A program made the translations under genes and the position numbers. The notes beneath the pieces are model-generated. The model was not told the origin of the DNA and did no database searches. It worked only from the letters and a program-made list of their open reading frames with translations. From positions 1 to 46,841 of the IMG/VR virus record IMGVR_UViG_2648501797_000005: a DNA stretch of 46,841 nucleotides; one strand, written 5' to 3'. This document shows, piece after piece, positions 19,475-21,088 of the stretch (position 1 is the stretch's first letter; every line of letters starts with the position of its first letter). This stretch comes from a virus. Lineage: Duplodnaviria > Heunggongvirae > Uroviricota > Caudoviricetes.

Positions 19475-21088
19475 TTAAGCCTGGTTGTTAAAACTGGTGA
19501 CCTGACGCTTGCCAGACTGGAACGGCGCCCAGGTGACGGCGGGATCGCCTTCAAAGGTGCTGATCTGGCGACCGGTAGCATCGGCGCGCTTAATCTCGCG
19601 CAGCATACCGGGACCAACTGACAGGCTGGCCGCCTTCTGCGCATCAGCGTAGATATGCTTTTCGGCAGTGCTCAGCAGTTGAGAATCAGCGATGGCAGAG
19701 AGATCGACGGCTTTGTAGTCCGGAGAATGCTCCTGCAGTTGAATCATCAGACGGCGGCGATACGCCATCGGTTTTTCACCGGACAGCGGGATCGGGGCGC
19801 GTTTGCCAAAGCTGGAGAAGACGCTATCGGCTTTCACCTGCGCTTCTGCAACTTCGTTGCGCTCTTCGTCGCTCAGTTCGGTAGGAATGCGGGAGCGAAG
19901 CTCAGCAATTTCCTGGAGGATTTGAGAGTCGGCTTTTTCTTTTGCCATTTTCTCAGCCTCTTCGGCATCCGCCTTTTCTTTGGCTTCAGCATCAGCTTTT
20001 TCCTTCGCGGCTTTCTCTTCCGCGTCGGCTTTAGCTTTCGCCTCTTCCGCTTCTTTGTCTTCTGCGTCAGCCTTTTCTTTCTTGGCGGCCTCTTCGGCGT
20101 CAGCCTTGGCTTTCGCTTCCTTCTCTTCGTCGGCCTTAGCCAAACGCGCATCGATCGCCTTATTAATCAGCGCTACGATTTTTTCCTCGTCCATCTTTTC
20201 AGCCTCTTCAGGAATGGAATCAGATTTAACACCGGTAGGGGCAAGGAGCTTGTCCCACACGCCCTGTTCACAAATTGCAACGTGGTCGAGCAGCTCGGGG
20301 GATGGCTCCACCAGTAGAGGCTGACCGTCGACAATGATTGATTGAGCAACCTCTGAGAACTTCACAGTTGGCGAGGTGCTTAATTGCCTTGTTGCCATAA
20401 TTTCAGCAGCTTCGGCGTCGTACACACGCGCAACGGCCCACACTTCGCCCTTATCGGCAACCCAGGCATTTGTCAGGGTGCCAATAACGCGCTTTGAGAA
20501 CTCGTCGCTATCAAGTGTTCTTTTTTCGGGGTGAAGCCAGATAAGTGGTACGCCAGCTACCCGCTGGAGAAATTCAGGGGTGAGATAGTCGTCCGGGTTA
20601 CGGAACGTCATCTCCTGATCTGCAGATCGCCAGGTAACCCCTGTTCCGGTCACCCGGATGGCGAACATCCACATGTTGTAAAAATATTGCGGGCTGCTGA
20701 GCGTTCCGTCAGCGATGAGCGCGGCCACGTCGGTTTCGTTGAGCGCCTGCTGCGCCAGCATTTCAGCGAATGGCTGATGAAGCGGCTTTGGCAGATCGTC
20801 AATATGGAACCATCCGGCGGCCAGCGATTCGTCGTTTATCTTCGCTTCGAATTGCTCCGGCACGTCGGCGCGGTAGGTCAGATAGTCACCATGTACGCTG
20901 TGCGGCGTCAGCGGGCCATCGTACTGATAGCCTGTTTCCTCCAGCACCTCGCGCCGTGCGGCGTCTATGGCTAACTCTCCCGGCTCTATCGTCCCGCCCG
21001 GCTGGCACCATGTGCCATCATCCGAGCGCTGAATCAGGAAGACGAACTTCCCCTGACGGAACATTATCCCGCTGCCAAAAATAGCCAC
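19475..21088 (-). CDS. NUDIX hydrolase domain fused to a head scaffold-like protein with acidic/basic coiled-coil repeats (537 aa)
   Basis: N-terminal [24 protein letters not shown] fits the Nudix box GX5EX7REUXEEXGU exactly; central [10 protein letters not shown]-type repeats; located between head-morphogenesis and capsid genes. Confidence 0.6.

Follow-up and report, generated by a model that had tools for sequence, protein, structure and literature searches.

A predicted Nudix-protease-scaffold polyprotein encoded among the head genes of a lambdoid Klebsiella phage or prophage

The locus described here raises the question of why a nucleotide-hydrolyzing enzyme should be encoded in one piece with a phage head protein. 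The DNA analyzed (hereafter the window) is a 46,841-nucleotide (nt) stretch from a virus of the class Caudoviricetes, IMG/VR record IMGVR_UViG_2648501797_000005, positions 1 to 46,841, and its sequence marks it as a temperate lambdoid phage or prophage of Klebsiella, of the same type as Chronis and RothC. Within its head genes an open reading frame (ORF) of 537 amino acids (aa), at 19475..21088 on the minus strand, encodes a polyprotein of three modules: a Nudix hydrolase domain, a predicted prohead protease and a scaffold. An initial annotation, made from the sequence alone, described the gene as an unusual fusion of a Nudix domain with a scaffold-like protein. That interpretation is supported in part. 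The scaffold and the fusion were rightly recognized, while the entire protease domain (residues ~116-290) was missed in a two-part description of the protein and the rarity of the fusion was overstated.

Reading frame and module layout

19475..21088, minus strand: full coding sequence of the Nudix - prohead protease - scaffold polyprotein; GTG start codon 21086-21088, stop codon 19475-19477
21098..21102, minus strand: Shine-Dalgarno sequence AGGAG, 9 nt 5' of the GTG start, read from the sequence

In the ORF list the 537-aa frame occupies exactly these coordinates and runs uninterrupted from its GTG codon, and PHROGs family phrog_6216 matches the whole protein (E 7e-246). An AlphaFold2 model built on 141 diverse homologues has a mean predicted local distance difference test score (pLDDT) of 88.7. 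It lays the protein out as a Nudix fold (residues 1-115), a beta-rich domain (~118-290), a helix (301-346), a disordered stretch (343-371), a second helix (373-398) and a well-ordered domain (~405-525). The annotation of phage RothC starts the same gene at the ATG of residue 9. We favor the GTG start because residues 5-12 form the first beta-strand of the Nudix fold in the model and align with the N-terminus of the family.

Such a fusion could be an artifact of assembly or annotation, or a recent domain capture without function, and public labels for homologues do conflict, ranging over 'NUDIX hydrolase' (the GenBank label of Klebsiella proteins ~99% identical to this one), 'hypothetical protein', 'glycosyl transferase' and 'TolA protein'. 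However, the same uninterrupted ORF is present in Klebsiella phages vB_Kpn_Chronis (99.4% DNA identity), RothC and RothD (98.9%), and is intact in five Yersinia phages (~80% DNA identity) and in Pantoea phage PdC23. Many Klebsiella assemblies carry it as well, one 90% cluster alone being found on 514 contigs. Since independently isolated phages and hundreds of contigs have this ORF unbroken, the reading frame is no artifact, and the sequencing frameshift that the initial annotation had allowed for is excluded by Chronis, RothC, RothD and these contigs. The architecture also recurs, with catalytic residues intact, in 91 clusters that share only ~40% identity. Conservation thus refutes the artifact explanation, to which we give practically no credence.

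Two of the conflicting labels were rejected as descriptions of the protein. No library supports 'glycosyl transferase', the label in Yersinia phages (e.g. vB_YenM_29.18, 6001-7632), and it looks wrong. TolA is the top NCBIfam match, but at 41.7 bits it falls below the 59.45-bit cut-off and reflects the composition of the Glu/Ala/Lys region; the resemblance of that composition to TolA accounts for the label 'TolA protein' in Escherichia phage Rac-SA53. The Rac-SA53 gene (5007-6299) also bears the note 'nudix', yet it has no Nudix domain and begins at the protease domain. Among Klebsiella variants the protein length is 537, 538, 540 or 541 aa, the differences possibly arising from changes in repeat length.

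The Nudix domain

20744..21088, minus strand: Nudix hydrolase domain, residues 1-115, from Pfam and the AlphaFold2 model
20927..20995, minus strand: Nudix box, residues 32-54, with catalytic R46, E47, E50 and E51, from a regular-expression match

A complete Nudix box, GX5EX7REUXEEXGU, was found by regular expression at residues 32-54, and Pfam NUDIX (PF00293) covers residues 9-112 (E 2.9e-16). The box with its metal-binding Glu residues and the alpha/beta/alpha fold place the domain in the Nudix superfamily. Together with the same ORF in isolates, these matches confirm the Nudix box and the fusion at 19475-21088 that had first been noted, although the domain is ~115 residues long by the model and the Pfam match rather than ~130. 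Among the 91 Nudix-bearing representatives of the family (described below), G32, E38 and R46 are each kept in 87, E47 and E50 in 90, and E51 in 89. Degenerate catalytic residues in homologues, which had been considered at the outset, are therefore not the rule. The domain as a whole is ~42% identical between clusters, a divergence similar to that of the C-terminal domain. Because the box is almost fully conserved in spite of this divergence, the enzyme appears to be under selection for catalysis, and the domain is predicted from sequence to be a catalytically competent pyrophosphohydrolase.

A weak PADLOC match was produced by the Nudix box alone and was discounted.

The protease domain

20219..20743, minus strand: predicted prohead maturation protease domain, residues ~116-290 (Pfam DUF2213 / Pa193_gp24)
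20531-20533, 20372-20380 and 20282-20284, minus strand: candidate catalytic residues His186, Ser237/Ser239 and His269, respectively

Pfam PF09979 (DUF2213) matches residues 159-276 at 25.2 bits, against a gathering cut-off of 22 bits, and the match is also precomputed for homologues. Partial PHROGs matches to 'head maturation protease' families extend over residues 160-418. Residues ~116-290 are modeled with an assemblin fold, which matches that of the T4 protease, and the gene has the head-module position of this protease class, between those for the portal and the major capsid protein. In 142 family sequences H186, S237, T238, S239, P240 and E261 are invariant and D268/H269 nearly so. The order His then Ser, and the spacing of ~51-53 residues between them in the 142 sequences, are those of assemblin-type proteases, in which the catalytic Ser lies about 50-70 residues beyond the His and is followed by a third catalytic residue. 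The comparison was made with T4 gp21 (His85/Ser140) and HK97, and the assignment of the catalytic residues is provisional. Our prediction for residues ~116-290 is a prohead maturation serine protease with an assemblin fold, belonging to the DUF2213/Pa193_gp24 family. Searches of the Protein Data Bank (PDB) with the protease-scaffold, both as a single sequence and as a Nudix-free family profile, returned only low-complexity or chance matches and did not recover Pa193 gp24.

In Burkholderia cenocepacia K56-2 the DUF2213 protein BCAM1066 was classed as carrying an 'essential domain' by transposon insertion sequencing (Tn-seq) and CRISPR interference (PMC8770471). Essentiality would be odd for a phage capsid protease domain and might reflect polar effects or prophage biology.

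The scaffold and a nested internal start

19895..20191, minus strand: Glu/Ala/Lys-rich helical region, residues 300-398, from composition and model helices 301-346 and 373-398
19478..19876, minus strand: C-terminal domain, residues ~405-537, conserved and confidently folded, presumed to be the capsid-binding or scaffold-assembly end
19475..20194, minus strand: putative nested, 3'-co-terminal scaffold ORF of 239 aa, from Met299 (ATG 20192-20194)
20203..20206, minus strand: internal Shine-Dalgarno-like GAGG, 8 nt 5' of the internal ATG

The Glu/Ala/Lys-rich scaffold part had been correctly read from the start: residues ~300-398 are 73-100% Glu/Lys/Ala/Asp and predicted to be helical, with residues 343-371 of low confidence or disordered (pLDDT <50). 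The C-terminal domain has pLDDT values of 91-98 over residues ~410-520. E438 is invariant and Q417, D421, G437, Y443 and R446 are nearly so, in a domain whose median identity among representatives is 0.41. We take the C-terminal 240 residues to be the scaffold because there is no other scaffold candidate between the portal and capsid genes.

Imperfect tandem repeats of 33 and 75 nt (19976-20129, minus strand) encode Glu/Ala/Lys repeats of the KADAEE type. Plus strand ORFs over them (e.g. 19655-20317) translate to low-complexity mirror images of the coding repeat, rich in Phe, Leu, Ser and Arg, and look like mere shadows of it.

The boundary between protease and scaffold carries signals of a second translation start. 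In an otherwise variable and gappy linker, 139 of 142 family representatives have Met (126) or Val (13) in the column of M299, the pattern that ATG and GTG start codons would give. Upstream of this position, 83 related loci (55-100% protein identity) yield 17 distinct 20-mers, and GAGG stands 8-9 nt ahead of the ATG in every one of the 17, flanked by codons that differ among them. Four distant lineages, namely Shewanella phage vB_Sb_QDWS, the Nudix-less Escherichia phage Rac-SA53 and two metagenomic contigs, have AGGAG, AGGTG, GAGG or AGAGG at the same distance. In six diverged lineages a Shine-Dalgarno-like motif precedes the internal start. A codon picked at random would have an equally good motif with a probability of 0.017-0.14, depending on the gene. 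An in-frame internal start with a ribosome-binding site at the protease/scaffold boundary is the arrangement of a nested gene, and a separate 239-aa scaffold product is probably made from Met299.

Nested protease-scaffold/scaffold genes are known from lambda (C/Nu3), Mu (I/Z) and herpesviruses (UL26/UL26.5). As in the present gene, the protease, of assemblin fold, is N-terminal and the scaffold C-terminal, with an internal start codon in frame that here would give a 3'-co-terminal scaffold. They differ in having no extra enzyme before the protease, and the internal start proposed here is deduced from conservation only.

A further Met column lies at residue 116, two residues before the near-invariant Glu118. 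Met occupies it in 41 of 91 Nudix-bearing homologues, and the same position is the start Met of 27 of 51 Nudix-less ones. This Met may be what is left of the start codon with which the protease-scaffold gene originally began, or may act as another internal start in the phages that have it. For the window, a second internal start at the Nudix/protease junction is excluded by Leu116 (CTC, 20741-20743).

Frequency of the fusion and the N-terminal slot

Relatives were sought with residues 120-537 only, against 1.84 billion representatives at 50% identity, so that their ranking is independent of the Nudix domain. This search found 1980 relatives, 551 of them at E <= 1e-30. The distant representatives come mostly from metagenomic contigs. 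Among the best 150, an N-terminal extension matching Nudix is present in 91, none is present in 53, which begin at the protease domain, and 6 have something else. With 91 of the 150 closest clusters carrying a Nudix domain, the fusion is far less unusual than it had seemed. Presence of the domain is scattered on the protease-scaffold tree, requiring 32 parsimony changes as compared with 41.5 for shuffled labels, which argues that Nudix is an accessory module and not a requirement for assembly.

Other arrangements of the N-terminus were also found. A Burkholderia plantarii protein (P0212; WP_253185357.1) has a PBECR1 barnase/colicin E5-like nuclease in place of Nudix. Two metagenomic proteins have longer architectures: DUF5710 + Nudix + protease in one (P0130), and a class II ribonucleotide-reductase-like region + Nudix + protease in the other (P0246, 1567 aa), which may be a gene-calling fusion. 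Related Nudix domains lie within annotated portal proteins of Burkholderia phages Bcep1, Bcep781, Bcep43 and BcepNY3, and within the head maturation protease of BcepB1A. With Nudix in 91 relatives, no extension in 53 and PBECR1 in one, the N-terminus looks like an optional, swappable cargo slot.

These distributions bear on the possibility that the Nudix domain has no effector role and serves assembly itself, either as a pro-domain that keeps the protease inactive until shell closure or as a nucleotide-binding switch. The domain does lie directly N-terminal to the protease, with model confidence of ~97 across the junction (residues 100-130). In T4 the N-terminal residues of gp21 block the active site until self-cleavage, and their removal activates the enzyme (PMC9958956). 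However, 53 of the 150 closest homologues lack any N-terminal domain and start exactly at the protease, the presence of Nudix is phylogenetically patchy, and a nuclease can take its place. A regulatory plug, moreover, would not require the metal-binding glutamates that are kept in 89-90 of 91 clusters. We consider a role in assembly or its regulation very improbable.

A model for Nudix as capsid cargo

On balance we lean toward the reading that the Nudix domain is cargo, carried into the procapsid by its scaffold tail; we place less weight on its actual ejection into the next host. Observed here are the domain composition, conservation of the catalytic residues, an N-terminal module that is optional and can be exchanged, synteny, and signals of the start-codon and Shine-Dalgarno kind. 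Nested-product synthesis, procapsid incorporation, cleavage, retention, ejection and a substrate are inferred, in the following way. The gene would give two products, the full-length polyprotein and the scaffold alone from Met299. The capsid-binding C-terminal part would be common to both, so that the full-length protein would enter the procapsid core together with the nested scaffold and place Nudix inside the shell. After assembly the protease would digest the scaffold and free the Nudix domain, possibly, as a matter of speculation, by a cut at the conserved [M/L]-x-Glu118 boundary, where Glu118 is near-invariant and position 116 is Met, Leu or Gly. The T4 protease gp21 cuts after Glu. Either by itself or with the protease still attached, the folded 13-kDa Nudix domain would remain in the head and exit with the DNA. 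Early in the next infection it would hydrolyze a nucleoside-diphosphate-X compound, as counter-defense or in host takeover. The most specific version of this proposal, in which a few capsid-delivered copies per virion destroy a pyrophosphate-containing immune signal or substrate before phage expression, we hold to be unlikely. Its candidate targets are alarmones, NAD-capped RNA, cyclic ADP-ribose (ADPR) derivatives of the Thoeris type and further conjugates of ADPR. On this reading the protease-scaffold N-terminus would be a general, swappable slot (Nudix, PBECR1 nuclease, others) for pre-loaded anti-immunity enzymes in a group of prophages very common in Klebsiella.

The main alternative is that Nudix acts late in the producer cell on a nucleotide-type signal or metabolite, for example the ADPR-derived signals of capsid-sensing defenses, and is then destroyed or expelled with the scaffold at maturation, the fusion providing timing and dosage only. 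The gene does lie in the late head operon, the intact catalytic site fits this role as well as it fits delivery, and protease and scaffold are usually removed from mature heads. TIR/Thoeris systems are reported to sense phage capsids (PMC12578639), and a preprint in which prohead protease is mentioned 56 times places escape mutations from Type I CBASS in virion assembly proteins. Against this, a free-standing late gene would do the same job, and a closed procapsid would cut the enzyme off from cytoplasmic substrates. Related Nudix domains have repeatedly been fused to head-internal proteins, including portal, MuF and protease (PMC9503650), and the slot may instead be occupied by PBECR1, a nuclease domain that injected polyvalent proteins typically carry. 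We regard action in the producer cell as possible but rather unlikely.

Several observations weigh against the cargo model. For the protease, alignment of the family profile with T4 gp21 by hhalign was not significant (probability 0.07%), and a Foldseek search of the domain against PDB gave no match at E <= 0.001, the best being a weak one at E 0.07. For the nested start, GAGG is fairly common in Glu-rich coding sequence, which is where the Shine-Dalgarno-like motifs lie. For retention, HK97 and lambda heads largely lose their protease and scaffold fragments at maturation, so the Nudix domain could be degraded or expelled as well. Of Pa193 gp24, only residues 286-326 are seen in the capsid, its authors being undecided as to whether the rest remains. 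For the substrate, the closest solved Nudix proteins by profile are NudG, MutT and RppH-like and not ADP-ribose pyrophosphatases; NudG and MutT score about 51 bits across the whole domain. T4 NudE scores 36.6 bits by BLASTP, with 53% identity over 34 residues around the box, and 41.5 bits against the family hidden Markov model, where it aligns only over the first 62 positions. Comparison of the nearest solved relatives and T4 NudE with the present domain did not discriminate a substrate class. Finally, our literature searches found no experimental study, whether proteomic, biochemical or genetic, of this protein or a Nudix-bearing homologue, of Nudix-protease fusions or of virion-borne Nudix.

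Relation to known systems

Fusions of Nudix to MuF, portal and capsid-processing peptidase proteins were described by Iyer et al. (2022), who proposed the same hypothesis of head packaging and injection. The domain combination and gene neighborhood are those found here. Their account is one comparative-genomics sentence, without domain boundaries, structure, nested start, frequency or experiment, and it places such Nudix domains in the T4 NudE clade, a placement unconfirmed for the present protein. The architectures NUDIX+DUF2213, DUF2213+LPD3 and DUF2213+DUF1073 are listed from Pfam in a 2022 Tn-seq paper (PMC8770471). Since these two papers and the GenBank labels precede this analysis, both the architecture and the delivery hypothesis first raised for this locus were already known. 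What is added here is the fold-level identification of the protease, the domain boundaries and the evidence for a nested scaffold start, together with the frequency and catalytic conservation of the Nudix module and the proposal that the N-terminus is a slot for exchangeable cargo.

Another protein of this kind is gp24 of Pseudomonas phage Pa193, which gives PF09979 its current name. Liquid chromatography-mass spectrometry showed gp24 to be present in mature virions, and a helix-turn-helix of it is bound inside the capsid under the five-fold vertices. Pa193 and the window share the Pfam family and the gene order (gp24 protease/scaffold - gp25 decoration - capsid protein). Pa193 gp24 is 478 aa long, is called only a putative scaffold by its authors, and is likened to the present protein by family and synteny.

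In T4 the prohead core contains the ADP-ribosyltransferase Alt (~40 copies) and internal proteins IPI-III, which are trimmed by gp21 and injected. As proposed here for Nudix, these enzymes or anti-restriction proteins are assembled into the scaffold core, cleaved by a protease of assemblin fold and passed to the host along with the DNA. However, the T4 cargo consists of separate polypeptides with a short N-terminal capsid-targeting sequence, whereas the proposed cargo here forms one chain with the protease-scaffold. MuF polymorphic toxins and phage 'polyvalent proteins' (PMC5512222; PMC12226406) also fuse a head-internal carrier to swappable effectors. Polyvalent proteins share the PBECR1 domain with the slot of the present family, but the carrier differs, being a protease-scaffold here and not MuF. 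T4 NudE (e.1), annotated in its record as active on FAD, Ap3A and ADP-ribose, is likewise a phage Nudix enzyme encoded beside virion or lysis genes.

If Nudix is loaded and ejected, it would be an enzyme acting before phage transcription, either against nucleotide-based immunity or for host takeover. Prophages with the gene are very common in Klebsiella pneumoniae and its relatives, which gives the question relevance to host range in phage therapy. A conserved, swappable N-terminal slot could also be exploited for filling capsids with foreign proteins. Direct experiments are practicable, as the cultured temperate phages Chronis, RothC and RothD carry a near-identical gene.

Head gene neighborhood

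21919..23334, minus strand: portal protein; Pfam Phage_portal_3 PF06381 (E 2.2e-20) and phrog_146 (E 3.6e-69)
21101..21922, minus strand: MuF/SPP1 gp7-like head morphogenesis protein, 273 aa; phrog_324 'head morphogenesis' (E 1e-29)
18599..19459, minus strand: 286-aa ORF; phrog_6268, function unknown, with C-terminal matches to 'virion structural protein' families
17554..18585, minus strand: major capsid protein, 343 aa; phrog_6671 (E 1.7e-182), phrog_264 'major head protein' (E 1.3e-6) and a weak match to Pfam Major_capside

Read along the minus strand, the genes are small terminase subunit (TerS) - large terminase subunit (TerL) - portal - MuF-like - Nudix-protease-scaffold - 286-aa ORF - major capsid protein, and their order is the same at the Shewanella, Rac-SA53 and metagenomic loci. 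The initial annotation had placed the gene between head-morphogenesis and capsid genes. It does adjoin the former, but the 286-aa ORF separates it from the capsid gene. By its synteny with Pa193 gp25 alone, this ORF probably encodes a head decoration protein; over residues ~165-242 the product resembles repeat domains found in large 'virion structural' and tail-fiber proteins. No effector domain was found by Pfam or PHROGs on the MuF-like protein (21101-21922).

The structural block (12000-26000) has a G+C content of 55-60%, and the flanks (1-12 kb, 26-46 kb) are mostly at 44-51%. This sharp mosaic is consistent with separate origins for a head/tail module and an early/regulatory module. The RothC annotation includes genes for tRNA-Ile and tRNA-Arg and a homing endonuclease (43998-44157, 44298-44837), upstream of the lysis cassette.

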